Origin: Escherichia phage vB_EcoM-E33
Reading direction: 5' to 3' (one strand)
DNA length: 64,000 nt
Sequence record: OL780484.1
This document shows, one piece after another, positions 2,846-40,601 of the stretch. Numbering within the stretch: the stretch's first letter is position 1; every line of letters begins with the position of its first letter. Made by a program: the position numbers and the translations under genes. A model generated the notes under the pieces. The model was not told where the DNA came from. It saw only the letters and a program-made list of their open reading frames with translations, and made no database searches.

Positions 2846-4372
2846 TTATTCTACTTTAATAATAAAAAGAACGGACATTGTCCATGGACGTGTTTCGTTG
2901 GCAATAAGACCTTCACTATTCAATGTGGTATGTCCATCACGGTTCCAAGGATCGGTGGTCTCAAAACCTTCGTTGGTATAATAACTACGGTTATCCCAGT
3001 CAAGGCCTTTACGAGTACCAACATATCCGGAGTTAGCGGTGTTACCAAAAGCGCCATAGTTATCATGTTCACCAAAACCACCAGCATGTTTATGATAACG
3101 TAATGCTTGGGCTTGAACGGAAGATTGCGGGAAAGAACCAACACCATTACCTAAACGGGCTTTACCTTTACCGTCTTCTCCTCGGTTACCGGCAATATGC
3201 GGGTTAACTTCGCCTTCAGAATATCCACCGACCATGTTAGCGCCACGAGGATATAATCCACGGAAATCTGGAATAGCACCCCACCATCCCCAACGCCCAC
3301 CAACAGCATTTAAATATGCACCACCAGTGTAAGTCCCACCTACACAAGCACGCCATTTACCAGGTATATTACCTTCATTGCCACCCCACATGCAAATAGT
3401 ACCCACCGGAACGCTATCTGATAATTGGTCATGGGTAACAACATCAACACCATTACGACGTAATGCTCCATTAACGTTTAAAGTACCCCATATTTCGCCG
3501 CCTGAAGTAGAAATAACGTTAGCATTATAAGCCAGCGCCGTATTACCATCGCCTTGGCCTACAGTAGTAGATAAACGAACCAACCCAATACGTCCAGTAT
3601 TACCTGTACGAGCTAACAAAGAAGCCGGTGTAACTGCGGCGGTATGGTCGGTACCATTAGATACCATATCCCAACCTGCGAGTTTAATAATACCGCTTCG
3701 TTCTTCGGTGGAAGTTAATGTGGCTAATCCTGCCGGAGAAATAGCGATACCTACCGAAAGACTTCCATTACCAACCTCTGCATTGGTCGCTAAACGAACT
3801 AAACCTTCATTTGTAGTCGTTGCTGTAGAATAAACCGGTAACGCGGCCGTCGCTGCACCAATTGCCTGAGATACTTTAAGTGGGGTCATTGCTGTGGTAT
3901 CATCGGTACCAGCTAATGCGGCAGGTGTAGTTGAAATCTTGATAACGCCTGTGGCGTTCTCTGTTGATAAACGGTTCTCAAATGTATAATCCATTACCGC
4001 TTTCAAAGAGGTTGCTACGATTGCAGCCTGGGGCTCTGTGCCTGCTATGGCTTCAGCGTTAGTAGCATAACGGGTGATACCTACATAAGTTTCTGTTGCC
4101 TGAGTAGGAATATCTAAACGAGCTTTTAAAGTTGCTGGTGTCACTGCACTATAAGCATCCAGACCATCCATTACTTCTTGTGTGGTTGCAAGACGAATAA
4201 TACCTTGGGATGTTTCTGTGGCTGAAGGAACATTACCTGTGACGCCGATTAATGAAATAGTGGCCAATGCTTCTTGAACATTAGTAATATCAGGCGGGAA
4301 ATTCGACCCAGTAGGGTCGAATGATTTGAATTCCGATTTATCACTAATGTGTTTTAGTGTGTTTGTTGACAT
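2846..4372 (-). CDS. 12: short tail fibre gp12
   Basis: 508 aa; KFDPTG.NFPP.IT.VQ N-terminus and C-terminal HKHAGGFGEHDNYGAFGN...GNETRPW match T4 gp12 as recalled. Confidence 0.9.
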   Translation of the reverse strand: MSTNTLKHISDKSEFKSFDPTGSNFPPDITNVQEALATISLIGVTGNVPSATETSQGIIRLATTQEVMDGLDAYSAVTPATLKARLDIPTQATETYVGITRYATNAEAIAGTEPQAAIVATSLKAVMDYTFENRLSTENATGVIKISTTPAALAGTDDTTAMTPLKVSQAIGAATAALPVYSTATTTNEGLVRLATNAEVGNGSLSVGIAISPAGLATLTSTEERSGIIKLAGWDMVSNGTDHTAAVTPASLLARTGNTGRIGLVRLSTTVGQGDGNTALAYNANVISTSGGEIWGTLNVNGALRRNGVDVVTHDQLSDSVPVGTICMWGGNEGNIPGKWRACVGGTYTGGAYLNAVGGRWGWWGAIPDFRGLYPRGANMVGGYSEGEVNPHIAGNRGEDGKGKARLGNGVGSFPQSSVQAQALRYHKHAGGFGEHDNYGAFGNTANSGYVGTRKGLDWDNRSYYTNEGFETTDPWNRDGHTTLNSEGLIANETRPWTMSVLFIIKVE

Positions 4373-13849: not shown

Positions 13850-15913
13850 TTAATTCCTAGTAGGAGATTCTAAACAAGGTATGCAAATGGAAAGGGATGG
13901 AAATGCAATCGTTAAACCGAATATTCCCAGCATCTTATTAATCCATTGTACCACCTTACTTAAGGATAATGTTGATATTTGGTTATACATTGATTTGCAC
14001 AAGTCTTTCATTGACCTGGAACCATCAGTAAATTCGTGATATAAAGATTTTGCTTTAGTTACTGAGTTCTCGTATATAACCATGATATCATCTACAGTAG
14101 CTCCGAGCATACCGAGAAGTTCTTCCATTTGAGCCACAATAGGAAGTTTTTTGAATTCTTCTAAAGCCATATCTAATACATCAGAAACGGAGGTTTGACT
14201 TTCGGTAATAGAGTTCTTAATCTGATTATATTTATTCTTTAAAAGTTCGAGTGCAGCTTCAGCTTGTGCTAATGCGGCTTCCTTCTGAGCAGTTAGCTCG
14301 TCTGTAACTTTTTCGTACATTCCTGAAAGATATTGTTTAAATTCAATAGCTTGTTTTTGTACTTCTTGCTTTTTGAGCTTAATCTCATTCCACAGATTGA
14401 GTGCCTGGGTTTTAAGAGCCTCAATCATTGCATAAGCTTCGTCTATTTTCTGGTCTACCTTTTCCATAACCATTTGATAAACATCTGATGCTGTGAATCC
14501 TGGAAAGTTACCGCTCATTATCATGTCCAGTGGTTTAACTTGCTTCATCATTTCCTTGACCGCAGTAATAACGCTCCAAACTGGGTTCGGAACTATAGGA
14601 GGCATACTCCATATTTGAGCGAGGTCTACACACAGTTTTGATAATGCAACACCAGCCATAAGCAATTGAGACCAGGCCCAGTCATACAAGTCTGTAATTG
14701 CATCAATAAGGTCACGCGAATACATCTTGACGCGTTCAACCGAATAATCGTATGCAGACCCAATGGCAGAATAAATCGATTGGATGGTTTCTTCTAAATT
14801 AAAGTTTTTCCATGCTTCTTTTAATTTCTGTACACCATCACCTGAAGTGCAGAGGTCTTCTAGGTCAATAGTCATGCCCATAATAGTAATCGAGGGTAAA
14901 AAGCTTTTAAGTAAGTCCCACCCACCGCCAACAATATTCAAGACCTGTGATATGGCATCTTTAAATGCAAGAAAAGCCATTTGCTGAACATATTGACACA
15001 TAGCAACAGCTGAGTTGCCTAGCTCTTCCATTGCGACCGATAGCTTACTATAACCAGAATCGAAGAATTTTTCCCAATCGGTTCCACCAGATGATGGCCA
15101 TCCAGGGAGCATATCCCAATATAATTTGAATGAATTCCTAGATGTATTCCATGAAGCCATAATCGCATTGGTCAATCCGTTGTAAGGGAATTCCGCTGTA
15201 AAAGGAACACAGCTTATTGCCCTGGCTCGCCCGGTTATTTCTGGCGGTAAAGACCCGATGGATACCGGTCCCGGAATCGGAGTTCCTGGGATACTCATAT
15301 CAACATCTAGATTTAATACCAGTCCAACATAAGTACAAGGTTTTGTCTCATAGTACTTCAAATAAGCCCTGCGGGAGTCACCAAGGCCGTTAAAGTTGAC
15401 ATACATATGATAATCAGCCGTAACTGCAATCATCGTCCTGGGGTCCATTCTGGGGCCTTGTGATGTCCATACACCGCCACAGTTTTCGATGCGATACATA
15501 TCATATTCAATAGATGTTTTATACAATACAGATTTTGATAAATCAGCGCCGTACCAATCATTACCGGGCAAAAGAGTTGCACCAATCGATTCTACATAAT
15601 TTTCTAAATCCAATTGCGTAATAAAGAATATTCCGAGTTTAGCACACCAGATACCTTGACTTGTTCCATCTTCCGGTGGGGGAGGTGCAGGAAAAGTTTC
15701 GGACTTATTACCAAATGGATTTTGTGTGTATAAATGTGTAGCTAGTGGAATAATCTCGGTATCCCATTCAACGCCATTCCCAGGTTGAATAAAAGCACCT
15801 GTTGGGTTATATAATTCCCATTTAACCCGGCGATATTCACCGGGTCCTACTGCGTCATCACAGGGACTTGTTACAGTCCCTACCACTTCATCAACTTTAT
15901 CGTAGTAATTCAT
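13850..15913 (-). CDS. large hypothetical protein in the gene 5.x slot (coiled-coil-rich C-terminal third, hydrophobic C-terminus)
   Basis: ORF track gives 13850-15937 with a GTG start; the ATG at 15913-15911 sits 1 nt after the gp5 stop (TAA-T-ATG) and gives 687 aa; its stop abuts the gp6 start. Confidence 0.7.
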   Translation of the reverse strand: MNYYDKVDEVVGTVTSPCDDAVGPGEYRRVKWELYNPTGAFIQPGNGVEWDTEIIPLATHLYTQNPFGNKSETFPAPPPPEDGTSQGIWCAKLGIFFITQLDLENYVESIGATLLPGNDWYGADLSKSVLYKTSIEYDMYRIENCGGVWTSQGPRMDPRTMIAVTADYHMYVNFNGLGDSRRAYLKYYETKPCTYVGLVLNLDVDMSIPGTPIPGPVSIGSLPPEITGRARAISCVPFTAEFPYNGLTNAIMASWNTSRNSFKLYWDMLPGWPSSGGTDWEKFFDSGYSKLSVAMEELGNSAVAMCQYVQQMAFLAFKDAISQVLNIVGGGWDLLKSFLPSITIMGMTIDLEDLCTSGDGVQKLKEAWKNFNLEETIQSIYSAIGSAYDYSVERVKMYSRDLIDAITDLYDWAWSQLLMAGVALSKLCVDLAQIWSMPPIVPNPVWSVITAVKEMMKQVKPLDMIMSGNFPGFTASDVYQMVMEKVDQKIDEAYAMIEALKTQALNLWNEIKLKKQEVQKQAIEFKQYLSGMYEKVTDELTAQKEAALAQAEAALELLKNKYNQIKNSITESQTSVSDVLDMALEEFKKLPIVAQMEELLGMLGATVDDIMVIYENSVTKAKSLYHEFTDGSRSMKDLCKSMYNQISTLSLSKVVQWINKMLGIFGLTIAFPSLSICIPCLESPTRN

Positions 15914-15914
15914 A

Positions 15915-17702
15915 TTAACCGACCTGTACGTTGCCACCAGATACTTTAGCTAATGAACCGCCATCCATATGCACAGTATTTGATGCGTTTAAATTAATGT
16001 TCGTCGCTGCAAAATTTAAATCTTGTTCGACATTTACATCCATATTTTGAGCATTGATTGTGGCCTTTTGTTTAACGCTTATATCTGCATTCTGGTTGAC
16101 ATTAACTGTTGTATCTTTTTCAACCGTAATATATGCTTCTTGTTCAACAGTTATATCAGCAGTACCCATAATAACTATTTTAACATTTCCTTTAACAAGC
16201 AGAGTTCCATTACCTTCTACAGTTTTGGTTTCATTCCCTCGAATATGAATGCTTTCAGACCCATCAGTTTGACGGCGCACGTTTGCCATATTATAATAGG
16301 TTTCATCGCCACCAACGTTGACTTTATTATTACCACCAACATAAGTATTTGAATCGCCTTGGGTCATATAATAACCATCGGCTACCGTCTTAGAAGTTTT
16401 ACGTCCATCAGGAGCAACTTCTTCATAACTACCGGTAGGATGGATTAAACGGTATCGTTCTTGCCCTGGGGTATTATCGAATTCTTGGATATGCCCGCCT
16501 TCAGTTTGCATGGTTTGGACATATGGATATTCGCCTTTATAACTAGAATCAGGTTCTTTAAAAAGAATCCTTGTGTCTTCTGGAGTCCACGGGTCGGCAG
16601 GGTCTGAATTTGTAGGGGCCACAAAGGTTTGAATCATTCTATACGAACGGCCATTAAATGACCTTTCTTTAGGGGCCATAATACCATATGATTCCATGTT
16701 ACCTGTGAGGATAATCATTGACACCCTTGATGCGCGACCTTTAGTTTGGTTAAACCATACTGAATTACGAGCTTCCTCAAATGCCTTTTTATAATCGCCT
16801 ATTAGCATTGCACTAAGCATTCCACGGAATTTAGCCAATCCACCTAATCCCATTTGGAAAGCCATGTTTTCAAGAGCCATTTGTCTTGAACGGTTTTCTT
16901 TATTGTAAACAGGACCTACAACACTATGCCGACCTATATCGTTTTGGACTTTTTTAAGGTCTTCTTGGAATAATTTAGAAGCCTCATCCATTGATATTGC
17001 ACCAGGGTTGCCTTTAACTTCTCGTCCTACCTGATTAGATAATATTTTGTTTATTCGATTCATATCTCTAATAGGTTGTGGTGTGATAAGGTGGCCTATA
17101 CCTATAGTAGGATAACCTTCGGTATCCCAATATACCTTCAGTCTAAGCCCTTCATCACGATGAAGCATGTTTTCTATTGTGAAATTAGGATTATCGTCTG
17201 GTTTGACTTGACTTAAATCCAACCCGTCAGGATTAATACCTACATCAGTGTTTGCATCTTGTATTACGTTAGAAGTGGCATCGTATCCAACTTCACCACC
17301 TCGGTTTAAAGCAGCAGCATCGTTACCTAAATAAAGCGGATATTGGCCTGTAGGGTCACTAAACCCTTCATTAGGATTAGCCTTCTGTCTTGAAGCGGAA
17401 CCGTATGTACCAAGGACAAGTCCGTTTAATTTCCACTTATCAAGAAAGTGACCATAAACTTGTGTACCGGGGACCATACCAGTCATAGCGGTTTGGATAC
17501 CTGAAACAGAGGCAGAAGATGTAGGCATTAATACCGACATCCATGGTAAATCTTCTGTACGAAGGCCTTTTACAGGGCCTTGTACTTTTTCATATGGATG
17601 CATACCCCATACGCGCACGCGTACTCGGCCTTGTTGGAGTGGGTCCATACGGTCTTCAACCACCCCTACGAACCAACTGACATTATCAGACATGTTAATC
17701 AT
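15915..17702 (-). CDS. 5: baseplate hub/cell-puncturing spike with lysozyme domain gp5
   Basis: 595 aa; N-terminal WFVGVVEDRMDP; lysozyme motif DEGL..WDTEGYPTIGIGH; C-terminal repetitive VxVxQ beta-helix segment. Confidence 0.92.
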   Translation of the reverse strand: MINMSDNVSWFVGVVEDRMDPLQQGRVRVRVWGMHPYEKVQGPVKGLRTEDLPWMSVLMPTSSASVSGIQTAMTGMVPGTQVYGHFLDKWKLNGLVLGTYGSASRQKANPNEGFSDPTGQYPLYLGNDAAALNRGGEVGYDATSNVIQDANTDVGINPDGLDLSQVKPDDNPNFTIENMLHRDEGLRLKVYWDTEGYPTIGIGHLITPQPIRDMNRINKILSNQVGREVKGNPGAISMDEASKLFQEDLKKVQNDIGRHSVVGPVYNKENRSRQMALENMAFQMGLGGLAKFRGMLSAMLIGDYKKAFEEARNSVWFNQTKGRASRVSMIILTGNMESYGIMAPKERSFNGRSYRMIQTFVAPTNSDPADPWTPEDTRILFKEPDSSYKGEYPYVQTMQTEGGHIQEFDNTPGQERYRLIHPTGSYEEVAPDGRKTSKTVADGYYMTQGDSNTYVGGNNKVNVGGDETYYNMANVRRQTDGSESIHIRGNETKTVEGNGTLLVKGNVKIVIMGTADITVEQEAYITVEKDTTVNVNQNADISVKQKATINAQNMDVNVEQDLNFAATNINLNASNTVHMDGGSLAKVSGGNVQVG

Positions 17703-33413: not shown

Positions 33414-33908
33414 ATGGATATTTTTGATATGTTACGTCAAGACGAAGGTCTTGATTTAAATCTTTATAAAGACACTGAAGGTTATTGGACTATTGGCATT
33501 GGCCAATTGATTACTAAGAACCCTTCTAAAGATGTTGCTCGTGCTGAACTTGATAAGCTTATGGGTCGAGTTTGTAATGGTCGTATTACTATGGCTGAAG
33601 CTGAACAACTCTTTAACCGATCGGTTGAAAATGCTCGTAGAGCTATTCTGCGTAATCCTAAATTGAAACCTGTTTATGATGTACTGGACGAAGTTCGTCG
33701 TTGTGCTTTAATTAACATGGTCTTCCAAATGGGTGAAGCAGGCGTAGCAGGGTTCACTAACTCTTTACGTATGCTCCAACAGAAACGTTGGAACGATGCG
33801 GCAGTTAACCTGGCTCAATCCCGTTGGTATAAACAAACTCCTAATCGTGCTAAGCGCGTGATTTCAACATTTAAAACAGGTACTTGGAAAGCATATGAAA
33901 ACTTATAA
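33414..33908 (+). CDS. e: endolysin (T4 lysozyme e)
   Basis: 164 aa; [30 protein letters not shown]...[31 protein letters not shown].. near-identical to T4 lysozyme; catalytic E11, D20, T26 present. Confidence 0.95.
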
Positions 33909-36891: not shown

Positions 36892-37100
36892 TGAAAATTG
36901 AAAGTTTACAAGATTTCCAGCGTATCATCGGTGAAGCCTGTACTGGCTACCACAAATACTTGCTTGACGACCAAATGGCTTGTCTCGAAGAAGGTGAAGT
37001 ACAGTATGCAGCCCAACGCCTTGAACAAGTGAAAGAGTTTTACCCTGTACTGGTAGAAATTTGTTCAGCTGCTGGAAAACTTACCCCATTCCAAGAATAA
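36891..37100 (+). CDS. hypothetical protein
   Basis: ATG 36891 overlaps the upstream stop (ATGA); ORF-track start 36849. Confidence 0.5.
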   Translation: MKIESLQDFQRIIGEACTGYHKYLLDDQMACLEEGEVQYAAQRLEQVKEFYPVLVEICSAAGKLTPFQE

Positions 37101-37104
37101 AGCA

Positions 37105-37133
37105 GTTTACATCTCCTGTAGACGTGGTACTAT
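37105..37133 (+). promoter_or_regulatory. early promoter inside stem-loop
   Basis: GTTTAC 37105-37110, 17 nt, TACTAT 37128-37133; same arms atctcctgtag / ctacaggagat as the 34294 cassette. Confidence 0.6.
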
Positions 37134-37161
37134 AGACCTATCAACTACAGGAGATTACAAA

Positions 37162-37620
37162 ATGTCAGAAATTAATTCAGAAGTATTCATCCGCCGCAAT
37201 AAATTACGTCGTCAGTTCGAAACCGAATTCCGTGAACTGAATACGTCCATCAAAAAAGCCGCCATCAAGAGCGGAGTCCCAGCCTTCTTTATTAAGTACT
37301 CTAATCACTTGTTGGACCGTGCTATCCAACGTGAAATCGACGAAAAATACGTTTTTGCTTTATTCAAGCAACTCCATAACCATGTTAAAGAAATTCATGA
37401 ATTTTTAATCCAGGAACCTCTACCTGATGTAGAATCCGAAATTGTCCCTGGTAAAGTGTATCGTCCATTGCGTCTCGAAATTACCGATAAAACCTTATGG
37501 CTAGGTATGACAGTAGACCGTAAACATCCTGATAAAGGATATTCCCTTAAATGTCGTATGGCATTTGTTAACTCTAAACGTTTAGAAGGTAAAACCAGCA
37601 CGAAAGTAATCTATCTTTAA
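37162..37620 (+). CDS. hypothetical protein
   Basis: SD aggag inside the hairpin 3' arm, then ATG; 152 aa. Confidence 0.55.
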   Translation: MSEINSEVFIRRNKLRRQFETEFRELNTSIKKAAIKSGVPAFFIKYSNHLLDRAIQREIDEKYVFALFKQLHNHVKEIHEFLIQEPLPDVESEIVPGKVYRPLRLEITDKTLWLGMTVDRKHPDKGYSLKCRMAFVNSKRLEGKTSTKVIYL

Positions 37621-37632
37621 TAATGAGGTCTC

Positions 37633-38172
37633 ATGAAAAAAGTATTAGCCACTTTACTATTGACAGTTAGTATGTCTGCCCATAGCGTAGAGCCTACTTT
37701 CAGTAATGAACAACTCGATAATTTACATTATGCGTATGCTTTCGGTGAACAATACCAAAAGTCGGGAAAGTTCAAAGAAAACCCTAATCAAAAAGGATTA
37801 GGATATATTATGGCCGGATTACTATGGCAGGAATCATCTGCCGGAATTAATCAGGGTTTAAATAAAGATAAGCACCATGCTTATGGCATGTTCCAAAATT
37901 ACTTGCCTACGTTAAGAAGTCGTGTTCAACAGGTAGGTTGGAAGATGTCTGACAAAGAAATAATTCGTATGGTCCAAAAACGACAGAACAGTGCCTCTTG
38001 GGCCTACATTGAACTGTCTTATTGGATTGATGTTCACAAAGGTGACCTGAGAAAAGCGATTGCTTCTTATAATGCGGGCTGGAACGCCAAAGCAGGCAGT
38101 AAATATGCTTCTGAAGTTCTAGAAAAGGCCAATTACCTAAAATCTAAAAAGATGTTTGAGGCGGTGTATTAA
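37633..38172 (+). CDS. secreted lytic-transglycosylase-like protein
   Basis: Signal peptide MKKVLATLLLTVSMSAHS; SLT-like motifs LLWQESSAG, AYGMFQ, ASYNAG. Confidence 0.6.
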   Translation: MKKVLATLLLTVSMSAHSVEPTFSNEQLDNLHYAYAFGEQYQKSGKFKENPNQKGLGYIMAGLLWQESSAGINQGLNKDKHHAYGMFQNYLPTLRSRVQQVGWKMSDKEIIRMVQKRQNSASWAYIELSYWIDVHKGDLRKAIASYNAGWNAKAGSKYASEVLEKANYLKSKKMFEAVY

Positions 38173-38529
38173 ATGATTAAGCAGATGACTATAGCGCTTA
38201 TGTTGATTGCTCCGGGAGTATTAGCGTCACAAGTTGGTGATAGTAATAATTCAATTGTCGAGTATGCTACCCGTACAGCAAAAGATTATTGTCATCCGAG
38301 TAATACTGAATGCATTATCGAATTCAGTTCAAAAATCACAGCTGCTTTTAAAGATGGGCAGAACGACGTAGAGCATCGTCGAATGAAAGAGAAAACTCTT
38401 TCTAAAAGATACGAGCAACGTCTAAACGTTACTGAATGTATTCCATCTGATAAAAAGTACAAAGAAATGTGCGCGTCTATGGTAGACAGACTCGTTGACT
38501 CTTACAACCGAGGATTAAACTCTAAATGA
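38173..38529 (+). CDS. small secreted Cys-containing protein
   Basis: Signal peptide MIKQMTIALMLIAPGVLAS; four Cys; ATG one nt after the upstream stop. Confidence 0.5.
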   Translation: MIKQMTIALMLIAPGVLASQVGDSNNSIVEYATRTAKDYCHPSNTECIIEFSSKITAAFKDGQNDVEHRRMKEKTLSKRYEQRLNVTECIPSDKKYKEMCASMVDRLVDSYNRGLNSK

Positions 38530-38993
38530 TTATTGATTATATTAAGGGCGATATTGTCGCCCTATTTCTTCAAGGTAATAATGTTGCACACGGGTGCAAC
38601 TGTTTCCACACAATGGGTTCAGGTGTAGCTGGACAATTAGCTAAGGCTTATCCGCCTATTCTCGCTATCGATAAAACTACTTATTTAGGTAATTTGGCAA
38701 AACTTGGCACGTTTACTCAAGCCACAGGTAATAATGGCCAAATTTGCTATAATTTATATACCCAATACGAACCAGGCCCTAATCTTGATTATGGTGCTTT
38801 AGTAAACTGTATGATAGAATTAAATCAACAAGCAAAAGGTCTTTTGTTTAAACCAAGAATTTATATCCCTCGCATTGGTTGTGGTATTGCTGGTGGTGAT
38901 TGGGACAAGGTTTATCAATTGATTAATTTGTTTACTCCTGATATTAATTTAGTGGTGGTAGATTATGAAAGCCCATTACCCGCATCCGTTTGA
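38526..38993 (+). CDS. macro-domain protein (ADP-ribose binding/hydrolase fold)
   Basis: GNNVAHGCNCFHTMGSGVAGQL and IPRIGCGIAGGDWDKV match the two macro-domain signature blocks (N-x6-GxGVA and P-x-IG-x-GI-x-G); ATGA overlap with upstream gene. Confidence 0.65.
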   Translation: MIIDYIKGDIVALFLQGNNVAHGCNCFHTMGSGVAGQLAKAYPPILAIDKTTYLGNLAKLGTFTQATGNNGQICYNLYTQYEPGPNLDYGALVNCMIELNQQAKGLLFKPRIYIPRIGCGIAGGDWDKVYQLINLFTPDINLVVVDYESPLPASV

Positions 38994-39177
38994 CCCTAAA
39001 AACAAAGCGGAAATTATTCGACGCTGGACCGAAACACGAGTAACTAAATGCCCTATAAAAAGTCAACACAACACCGATAAATGGTATATTGGTGAATATG
39101 TTGAGTATACTTTTATAGATAAAAATAAACGTAAACAGCATGTAGAAGAATATTGCTTAAAGGTGCAATGGTTATGA
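38965..39177 (+). CDS. hypothetical protein
   Basis: 70 aa; overlaps the macro-domain gene end by 29 nt; its stop overlaps the next ATG (ATGA). Confidence 0.45.
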   Translation: MKAHYPHPFDPKNKAEIIRRWTETRVTKCPIKSQHNTDKWYIGEYVEYTFIDKNKRKQHVEEYCLKVQWL

Positions 39178-39347
39178 GTCTGAGTAAAGAACAGAAAGAT
39201 AAATTGTTTGAGCTTATCCATGAGCTTATGGAACTCAACATAGAATGTGAATTTGATAACTCTCTGGATTGGGATTGGAGAGGTGGTGAAGAGGATGAGT
39301 TTTCTAAAAAGGAAAATGAATTAATTGCTTATGTAAATAGTCTTTAA
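39174..39347 (+). CDS. small acidic hypothetical protein
   Basis: ATG 39174 (MSLSKEQ...); ORF-track start 39153. Confidence 0.5.
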   Translation: MSLSKEQKDKLFELIHELMELNIECEFDNSLDWDWRGGEEDEFSKKENELIAYVNSL

Positions 39348-39356
39348 GAAGGTAAT

Positions 39357-39929
39357 ATGGCTCAACTTTATTTTCATTATGCGGCGATGAATTCCGGGAA
39401 AACCGCTTCATTGCTAACGGCAGCTCATAACTACAAAGAACGTGGTATGGGCGTACTCCTTTTAAAGCCTGCGATAGACAATAGAGAATCAAGCCATAGC
39501 ATTTCGTCTCGTATAGGGATTAGTCAAGAGGCTAATGCCGTGACTCCGGATATGGACCTATACGAGTTCTATCGTTGGGCTGAATCTCAAAAAGATATCC
39601 ACTGCGTATTTGTGGATGAAGCACAGTTCTTAGAACCTGCACAGATAAAACAACTGGCAAAGATAGTAGACAATTATAATGTTCCGGTTATGTGCTATGG
39701 GCTAAGAACTGATTTTCAGGGTAAACTGTTTCCTGGCTCTGCTGAATTACTCGCTACGGCAGATAAACTCGTTGAGTACAAAGGTGTGTGCCATTGTGGC
39801 CGTAAAGCTACTATGACTGCTAGGGTCCAGGATGGTATCGCAATTAAGGACGGCGCCCAAGTTTCTATAGGTGGCAACGATTCTTACGTGTCATTGTGCA
39901 GGAAGCACTGGATAGAAATAACGAGTTGA
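39357..39929 (+). CDS. tk: thymidine kinase
   Basis: 190 aa; YAAMNSGKTASLLTAAHNYKERGM, DIHCVFVDEAQFL, VSLCRKHW match T4 Tk. Confidence 0.93.
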   Translation: MAQLYFHYAAMNSGKTASLLTAAHNYKERGMGVLLLKPAIDNRESSHSISSRIGISQEANAVTPDMDLYEFYRWAESQKDIHCVFVDEAQFLEPAQIKQLAKIVDNYNVPVMCYGLRTDFQGKLFPGSAELLATADKLVEYKGVCHCGRKATMTARVQDGIAIKDGAQVSIGGNDSYVSLCRKHWIEITS

Positions 39930-39936
39930 GGGTATT

Positions 39937-40215
39937 ATGGACCTAAATTCAAAGATTTTAATTCTAGCGTTCGCTGTGGCTATTTCTTATATTGTTCTTT
40001 CGCCTATCATGGATGATGTGGCTTACAAAAGAGAGATAGAGGTTGTAGCAGCGACGTATAATGCTAATAATAAAGAGTGTCCTAATAAAAACGGGATGGA
40101 TTTAATTAAAGCGCATTATATGCTTTCCATTACCTCGCCTATACAGAGGAATTGGGTTGAATATAATTTTAACGACGTGTTCTATTCTTATTGTCGTAAG
40201 CTTAAAAAGCTATAA
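39937..40215 (+). CDS. membrane-anchored hypothetical protein
   Basis: N-terminal hydrophobic helix ILILAFAVAISYIVLSPI; 92 aa. Confidence 0.5.
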   Translation: MDLNSKILILAFAVAISYIVLSPIMDDVAYKREIEVVAATYNANNKECPNKNGMDLIKAHYMLSITSPIQRNWVEYNFNDVFYSYCRKLKKL

Positions 40216-40307: not shown

Positions 40308-40601
40308 ATGGATATTTTCCGTACAGCGGCTTGTATCCTTATGGCGGGATGTTTAAGCCCTACAGTTTCACTAGCAAATGGTGCCAATGATAAATTGATG
40401 GATGCATTTGCTAGTAGTGCGATGCCTGTTTATGCGCAAATGAGTAGACCCAGCGTAAAGGCCTCCGAAGACTATTGGGCCTATGTTACGGCTTCCTGGA
40501 AGATTTCAAGTTGTCGGACTATAGAAGCGTGCTCAATTGAAGGTCGGGCCATCGGAGAGCGTTATGTAAAACTAATGAAGGTGGAAGATGAAGTTCAATG
40601 A
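40308..40601 (+). CDS. rI: rI-like lysis-inhibition regulator (periplasmic, signal-anchored)
   Basis: 97 aa, same length as T4 RI; N-terminal hydrophobic segment with LSP; C-terminal Cys pair region C..IEACSIEGRA resembles T4 RI C..FECIERGA as recalled. Confidence 0.5.
   Translation: MDIFRTAACILMAGCLSPTVSLANGANDKLMDAFASSAMPVYAQMSRPSVKASEDYWAYVTASWKISSCRTIEACSIEGRAIGERYVKLMKVEDEVQ

Follow-up and report, generated by a model that had tools for sequence, protein, structure and literature searches.

In our study, a stretch of 64,000 nucleotides from Escherichia phage vB_EcoM-E33 (sequence record OL780484.1; hereafter the window) was found to contain two adjacent genes which, judged from their sequences and from their place between regB and tk.4, are virtually certain to be the orthologues of the T4 genes vs.1 and vs. 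On balance, we favour the reading that vs.1 and vs form an early periplasmic two-gene module, in which a putative lytic transglycosylase, Vs.1, would be accompanied by a disulfide-stapled partner, Vs; actual export and cleavage, the disulfides, the contact between the two proteins, the role of the pair and the enzymatic activity are what we infer. The new results are the tightly conserved pairing of vs.1 with vs, the export signals found throughout both families, and the clash of the features of Vs with its long-standing annotation as a valyl-tRNA synthetase (ValRS) modifier. Few non-structural genes of the large lytic phages of Gram-negative bacteria are as widely retained as vs.1, and a screen of 2025 for T4 genes required in minimal medium had vs as its strongest hit. 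If both proteins are periplasmic, phage control of the host wall would begin early in infection and not just at lysis, and the functional label of Vs, which is about 50 years old, would need to be re-examined.

The window represents a Dhakavirus-type relative of T4. Positions 37000-39950, which include both genes, were found by megablast to be 99.4% identical to Escherichia phage QL01 and to match 671 phage records. Phages IME08 and T4 annotate the pair as vs.1 and vs, in the order regB - vs.1 - vs - tk.4 - tk.3 - ... - tk. The window Vs.1 was 67% identical to T4 Vs.1 over the full length and was assigned to PHROG 600 (unknown function; E 4e-67), and the window Vs was 45-46% identical to T4 Vs and was assigned to PHROG 1256 ('valyl tRNA synthetase modifier'; E 2.7e-34); homologues of Vs bear PF26829. 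The protein collection searched holds more than 100 homologues of Vs.1 and 28 of Vs, and an NCBIfam search gave no match for either protein. In the window, the stop codon TAA of vs.1 abuts the ATG of vs with no gap. A scan for promoters and terminators was at chance level, with a weak promoter-like site present 5' of regB only. A preliminary description, made from the sequence of the window without database searches, had placed a 179-amino acid (aa) protein with the motifs QESSAG, AYGMFQ and ASYNAG here, followed by a gene for a small protein with four cysteines; both open reading frames (ORFs) were recovered at those positions with these features. It had also held the two proteins to be distinct from the lysozymes gp5 and e of the window, and these are separate genes indeed; on this ground a role of Vs.1 as the endolysin or the tail lysozyme was rejected. 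Superinfection exclusion, remodelling of peptidoglycan and modulation of lysis had been named there as candidate roles. The identity of the pair with T4 vs.1 and vs, the published SLT similarity and the ValRS-modifier label of the small Cys protein had been missed. Since both genes were already known from T4 and their literature includes the SLT similarity, the finding as first written was an ordinary one.

From its motifs, Pfam matches and modelled fold, Vs.1 is predicted with good confidence to be a GH23/SLT-type lytic transglycosylase. The three motifs occupy residues 66-71, 83-88 and 144-149, respectively. Among 38 aligned relatives, down to 42% identity, the motif residues W65, E67, S69, G85, Q88, N89, E127, W131, Y146, N147, G149, and Y158 were invariant, along with four positions outside the motifs (Q27, A34, L169, and K170). 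The motif residues match the E-S, G-x-x-Q and Y-N-x-G signatures of the family-1 lytic transglycosylases, and E67-S68-S69, G85-M-F-Q88, S145-Y146-N147-A-G149 and the downstream Y158 conform to the SLT motif pattern (E-S with the catalytic Glu at a helix end, G-[LM]-[MF]-Q, and A/S-Y-N-x-G followed by a Tyr). No conserved Asp was found after the catalytic Glu in the 38 relatives, which would favour transglycosylase over hydrolase chemistry. Pfam SLT (PF01464) was detected at E<=0.01 in 32 of 37 relatives of Vs.1 (best E 1.3e-7), and a precomputed PF01464 match is present on many homologues. When the profile of the Vs.1 family was compared with solved structures, the best match was to the goose-type (g-type) lysozymes, with an alignment running through the catalytic ES(R/S)AG, though at an E of only 0.2. 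The AlphaFold2 model of the 179-aa protein (predicted local distance difference test, pLDDT, 88.8; predicted template modelling score, pTM, 0.82) has a lysozyme-like, all-helical fold, with E67 at the end of the helix 57-68. The top 18 Foldseek matches of the model in the PDB are a Ralstonia GH23 chitinase, MltD, cod g-lysozyme, Pseudomonas Slt, Neisseria LtgA, E. coli SLT70 and the phi6 P5 lysin, with a probability of 0.57-1.0 (at least 0.89 in 16 of the 18) and a template modelling (TM) score of 0.37-0.52; the transglycosylase fold proposed in the preliminary description is thus supported, with the GH23 chitinase, lytic transglycosylases and the g-type lysozyme as best matches. The similarity of Vs.1 to SLT is not new: Nolan et al. 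2006 called it 'marginally significant' across six T4-type genomes, citing earlier PSI-BLAST results (PMC1524935).

Judged from their N-termini, both Vs.1 and Vs are predicted with high confidence to be exported by the Sec pathway, and both would be cleaved. In the N-terminus of Vs.1, MKKVLATLLLTVSMSAHS, the n-region bears two K, the hydrophobic core spans about 12 residues, and positions -3 and -1 are occupied by small residues; the N-terminus of the window Vs is MIKQMTIALMLIAPGVLAS and carries no lipobox. In T4, the predicted mature N-termini would follow AHS18 in Vs.1 and, in Vs, a site with small residues between S17 and A20. Export was assessed with a home-made heuristic, which asked for a positive n-region, 7-15 residues of hydrophobic core, and small residues at both -3 and -1. 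In a first set of 38 Vs.1 and 27 Vs orthologues, all were found to contain one or two Lys/Arg, an uncharged hydrophobic core of 10-15 residues and an AXA-type site. The sequence of the signal segment drifts freely among these orthologues, so it is the property that is conserved and not the sequence. In a wider set of 70 phage loci, all 54 distinct Vs-like proteins and 52 of the 54 distinct Vs.1-like proteins passed the heuristic, and the two that failed resemble proteins with mis-called starts; the background rate was 14% (79/571) among the remaining ORFs of these loci that are 90 aa or longer. Signal-peptide-like features such as those noted on the two proteins from the window sequence are therefore shared by their relatives. 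One lineage of Vs (loci L033-35, L039, and L053; about 3549-3875) was found to contain the canonical lipobox VVALSGC, followed by K, in place of the signal peptidase I site, with a lipobox defined as [LVI][ASTVI][GAS]C at the end of the signal peptide; such a lipobox makes sense solely for an exported protein. The two AlphaFold models gave low confidence to a stretch of about 20 residues at the N-terminus, which was detached from the fold (pLDDT <50 for residues 1-22 of Vs).

The AlphaFold2 model of Vs (pLDDT 79) contained helices at residues 22-39, 45-67, 73-89, and 94-115, and the cysteines are situated at positions 40, 47, 89, and 100. In the family alignment, which includes members at 17-25% identity, the invariant residues besides the start Met were only the four Cys and two Gly. 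Conservation of this kind is typical of small disulfide-stabilised extracytoplasmic proteins, a class to which Vs may belong. In an up-down bundle both Cys pairs would lie at the same end, and disulfides within or across the hairpins would both be possible. A zinc site formed by the four Cys was also considered; the signal peptide speaks against it, as do the C-x5-10-C spacings, which are unusual. Vs has no informative sequence or structural relative beyond its own family: a sequence search of the PDB gave nothing significant, a profile search of 1.84 billion representative proteins gave eight matches with no evident relative other than phage Vs (the library is without names or sources), and Foldseek against viral models returned Vs orthologues together with a weak match to a phage 'lipoprotein' (E 0.087), which was the best non-orthologous one. 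Natural decay of vs was observed beside an intact vs.1 in two loci. In vB_EcoM_005 (L008 3541-3798), an in-frame deletion has removed the first Cys hairpin and left a Vs of 85 aa; in locus L039 (3549-3876), vs is split by a frameshift.

The pairing of the two genes was followed across phages by searching the ORFs of 70 viral loci encoding Vs.1 relatives with a hidden Markov model of Vs (one iteration). A Vs-like ORF on the same strand was found just downstream of vs.1 in 64 of the 70 loci, and the gap from the vs.1 stop to the vs start was between -8 and +7 nucleotides in 56 of the 58 loci in which it was measurable. The RB43-type loci contained one or two unrelated genes between vs.1 and vs. 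Within 3 kb, regB and/or tk.4 was gone in 21 of the 64 paired loci, and both were gone in 8, with vs still next to vs.1. The six loci without a Vs-like ORF comprised four of the Aeromonas 44RR type and two jumbo contigs of about 300 kb. In the reverse query, all 27 loci with a strong Vs match, all of them close relatives, lay on contigs also bearing vs.1. By tblastn, Vs.1 was found in 2075 phage records versus 797 for Vs. In the Acinetobacter phage AB-Navy97 (L004 2459-4305), vs.1 was followed by a vs-like gene, genes for a 141-aa signal-peptide protein and a 99-aa membrane protein, and rI, with neither regB nor tk.4 present; the run forms an uninterrupted series of predicted envelope proteins.

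Relatives of Vs.1 were also observed in other settings. In the Felixounavirus 'allfine' (L005 2501-3049), a relative with a signal peptide lies directly after rIIA-rIIB and is annotated as 'putative lysin', and in the Kuttervirus Se-B another one (gp001; L006 76-693) lies at the genome start. Two genes downstream of vs.1 in the Aeromonas phage 44RR2.8t, ORF105c (L003 3356-3796) encodes a 146-aa protein with the lipoprotein-like N-terminus MKKSIATLIAIGMYGC; it may be a non-homologous replacement of Vs, which is absent from the Aeromonas T4-type phages.

Published T4 data tie the two genes in expression and in phenotype. In time-resolved omics, vs and vs.1 are both classed as 'early RNA, middle protein' (PMC9697503 supplement), so the early region assumed in the preliminary description holds for T4. 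In the HIDEN-SEQ transposon study, vs showed the strongest depletion of all T4 genes in M9-glucose versus LB, phage deleted for vs formed plaques poorly on M9-glucose, and the authors read vs as a ValRS modifier of unknown role (bioRxiv 10.1101/2025.11.20.689424). In the LB liquid competition of that study, the mean insertion reads were 26.6 for vs and 22.6 for vs.1, as against 179 for regB, 290 for tk.4, 767 for tk.3, 652 for vs.3 and 265 for vs.4; in M9, the reads were 5.0 for vs (log2 fold change -2.19, adjusted p 0) and 11.9 for vs.1 (log2 fold change -0.87, p 0.0055, adjusted p 0.155) (table S8, 10.1101/2025.11.20.689424). Insertions in both genes are thus about 10-fold under-represented relative to the neighbouring genes and are lower still in minimal medium. 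The shared depletion points to a common and unusual fitness cost, which fits a common pathway. A pure toxin-antidote model, in which Vs just neutralises Vs.1, fits poorly with the cost that insertions in vs.1 carry of their own; polarity could mimic this cost.

In the periplasmic module that we favour, the two genes would be transcribed early and both products would be exported to the periplasm of the infected cell. Vs.1 would be made with a cleavable Sec signal peptide, and its mature domain of about 160 residues, with Glu67 as the catalytic residue, would cleave glycan strands of the host sacculus separately from the endolysin e and the tail lysozyme gp5. Translation of vs would follow directly after that of vs.1, and the product would be Sec-exported, with a lipid anchor in one lineage, and would fold as a four-helix bundle of about 100 residues with two putative disulfides. 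Vs would most likely modulate or direct the reaction of Vs.1, or share an envelope target with it; direct modulation of Vs.1 by Vs is a plausible, tentatively held proposal. Together, the two proteins would confer a fitness benefit, greater in minimal medium. Among the possible roles, remodelling or priming of peptidoglycan for the growth or lysis of slow-growing cells is ranked first, as the minimal-medium phenotype fits best with wall remodelling or priming in small, slow-growing cells. Resistance to lysis from without or to superinfection is ranked next as an alternative, and an accessory role in lysis is a further one.

Several points weigh against such a module. The vs product is said, from the work of Marchin and Neidhardt, to bind the cytoplasmic valyl-tRNA synthetase, and a genetic interaction of T4 vs with host valS(ts) has reportedly been observed. 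The tau factor is reportedly of about 10 kDa; the predicted mature T4 Vs would have about 96 residues (about 11 kDa), a similar size that would suit a cleaved protein. The classical literature says the same of the vs product, and the label 'valyl-tRNA synthetase modifier' is consistent over phage records; in PMC8076793, a function of Vs as a factor binding the host synthetase is attributed to Muller and Marchin 1975/1977. It could therefore be held that the annotation is sufficient, so that Vs is the cytoplasmic tau binding the host ValRS, its hydrophobic N-terminus does not function as an export signal or leads to export of a part of the protein only, and its adjacency to vs.1 is inherited. 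The M9-glucose defect of T4 vs is in keeping with a contribution to aminoacylation under amino acid shortage, and the absence of excess co-variation between Vs.1 and Vs, described below, agrees with it too. This explanation is unlikely in our view, since signal-like N-termini were kept in all the 54 Vs-like proteins despite free drift of the sequence, a lipobox is present in one lineage, four Cys and two Gly are all that is invariant in the family apart from the start Met, and vs stays beside the gene of an exported enzyme where the other neighbours are lost. In addition, expression of Vs with an N-terminal His tag in E. coli gave insoluble protein (PMC8076793). Among the papers covered, a literature search found no link of the ValRS modifier with the periplasm, and, without the Miller 2003 review and Muller and Marchin 1975/1977, it did not find how the ORF was assigned to the genetic vs locus. 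A Sec-exported, lipobox-capable protein with Cys-only conservation, as Vs is predicted to be, is an unlikely ligand of a cytoplasmic synthetase; the export signal, the lipobox variants and the conservation pattern place the ValRS-modifier label in doubt and do not disprove it. The two bodies of evidence could be reconciled if Vs is a Sec-exported, disulfide-bonded periplasmic protein working with Vs.1, and either the ORF was mistakenly given the vs/tau function or the association with ValRS stems from a small share of Vs that is not exported or from mixing once the cell has lysed. The defect of vs mutants in minimal medium would on this view concern the envelope and not translation; in this specific form, the proposal is possible and rather doubtful.

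Other contrary points concern the tie between the two proteins and the activity of Vs.1. A distance-matrix (mirror-tree) test showed no excess co-variation of Vs.1 and Vs (partial r 0.16, not above control pairs), and Vs was found to evolve about twice as fast as Vs.1. Many T4 early genes have overlapping or tightly spaced starts and stops, vs/tk.4 included, hence these are a weak sign of coupling. Relatives of Vs.1 occur without an adjacent Vs in Felixounavirus, Kuttervirus, the Aeromonas 44RR-type phages and jumbo phages, which indicates that Vs is not obligatory for Vs.1. Insertions in vs.1 may also be simply polar on vs. The rates of evolution, the lack of specific co-variation and the phage families in which Vs.1 occurs without Vs would suit a reading in which both proteins were periplasmic yet independent, with Vs aimed at its own component of the host envelope (a periplasmic lysozyme inhibitor, a receptor, or a part of lysis or lysis inhibition) and neither binding nor regulating Vs.1. 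The run of signal-peptide and membrane proteins beside rI in AB-Navy97 and the stronger M9 effect for vs than for vs.1 also agree with independent action. We regard it as improbable because the adjacency was found in 64 of 70 loci and outlasts that of regB and tk.4, because vs was never seen without vs.1 in the 27 strong Vs loci (all close relatives), and because both insertion mutants show the same unusual under-representation. As for Vs.1 itself, the window protein scored below the gathering cut-off of Pfam SLT (16.2 versus 21.3 bits) and the Foldseek E-values were modest (0.02-1.3), both of which would suit a catalytically dead peptidoglycan-binding or membrane-anchored protein in place of a soluble, active lytic transglycosylase. 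With the catalytic Glu and all the SLT signatures invariant down to 42% identity, and a hydrophobic core of about 12 residues that is too short for a transmembrane anchor, a dead or anchored Vs.1 is very improbable.

Vs.1 and Vs were also compared with known systems. T4 Vs.1 (NP_049725, UniProt P13311; PHROG 600) resembles the window Vs.1 in its regB-vs position, signal-like N-terminus and SLT motifs, with no substantive difference, and it has no demonstrated function beyond the 'marginal' SLT match (PMC1524935). T4 Vs (NP_049724, UniProt P13310; PHROG 1256; PF26829) resembles the window Vs in length, in the four Cys, in the C-terminal SMVDRLVDSYNRGL and in position; the cytoplasmic function assigned to it is at odds with the conserved export signal, the lipobox variants and the Cys-only conservation. 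VirB1, P19, EtgA, and IpgF are small Sec-exported transglycosylases of secretion and conjugation systems. With such 'specialised' family-1 lytic transglycosylases (GH23), Vs.1 shares the signal peptide, a single SLT domain of about 150 residues, the motifs and the lysozyme-like fold, whereas it comes from the early region of a lytic phage, is not linked to a trans-envelope machine, contains a conserved N-terminal helical extension (residues 23-55) and has a marginal SLT sequence similarity. The goose-type lysozymes (GH23), among which 3gxk was a structural match, differ from Vs.1, which is without conserved Asp residues after the catalytic Glu. The T4 Spackle protein (Sp) is a helical protein of the periplasm, where it inhibits a muralytic enzyme of the phage, the gp5 lysozyme. 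Like Vs, it is small, made early, and contains a signal peptide and Cys residues; no homology between the two was detectable by hhalign (probability 0.9%). The gene of Spackle is not beside that of its target gp5, whereas vs is beside vs.1. For a pair of interacting periplasmic proteins such as gp5/Spackle or lysozyme/PliG, the adjacency of vs.1 and vs in 64 of 70 loci and the absence of excess co-variation point in opposite directions.

Table 1. Positions of the vs.1-vs pair, its predicted features and other genes mentioned, in window coordinates.
Feature	Position	Strand	Remarks
vs.1 orthologue, 179 aa	37633..38172	+	Predicted exported GH23/SLT-type lytic transglycosylase
Predicted Sec signal peptide of Vs.1, residues 1-18, MKKVLATLLLTVSMSAHS	37633..37686	+	Putative cleavage site AHS/VE; heuristic
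Glu67 codon, predicted catalytic acid (W-Q-E-S-S)	37831..37833	+	Invariant in 38/38 aligned relatives; aligns with ESRAG of g-type lysozyme
vs orthologue, 118 aa	38173..38529	+	Predicted exported four-helix, four-Cys protein; annotated 'valyl-tRNA synthetase modifier'
Predicted Sec signal peptide of Vs, residues 1-19	38173..38229	+	Putative cleavage after VLA or LAS; heuristic
First Cys pair of Vs, C40 and C47	38290..38313	+	Flanks the helix 1-helix 2 turn; invariant, including relatives at 17-25% identity
Second Cys pair of Vs, C89 and C100	38437..38472	+	Helix 3-helix 4 turn; in all 23 aligned family members
Shine-Dalgarno-like GAGG	37625..37628	+	4 nucleotides 5' of the vs.1 start codon; putative, from sequence
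Purine-rich GAGGCGGTG within the 3' end of vs.1	38158..38166	+	Likely ribosome-binding site of vs, from sequence
regB, site-specific endoribonuclease	37162..37620	+	Pfam REGB_T4, E 6e-69; upstream neighbour, codirectional
tk.4, macrodomain gene (T4 AdfM)	38526..38993	+	Pfam Macro, E 4.9e-8; downstream neighbour; start overlaps the vs stop by 4 nucleotides
rI, RI antiholin	40308-40601	+	Pfam
gp5, tail lysozyme	15915-17702	-	Separate gene, same window
e, endolysin	33414-33908	+	Separate gene, same window

Among the neighbouring genes, T4 Tk.4 has been named AdfM, an anti-DarTG2 factor (preprint 10.1101/2025.11.20.689424). Between tk and rI, the window contained a gene for a 92-aa protein (39937-40215, +; PHROG 6298, unknown) with an N-terminal hydrophobic segment; it occupies the place of T4 rI.1 and is likely another envelope protein of the region. 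On the other strand, a 695-aa ORF (13850-15937, -; PHROG 5296, unknown function) was found between gp5 and a gp6-like baseplate gene. It contained a weak tape-measure-like stretch, and in T4 just the small genes 5.1, 5.3, and 5.4 are present at this place.

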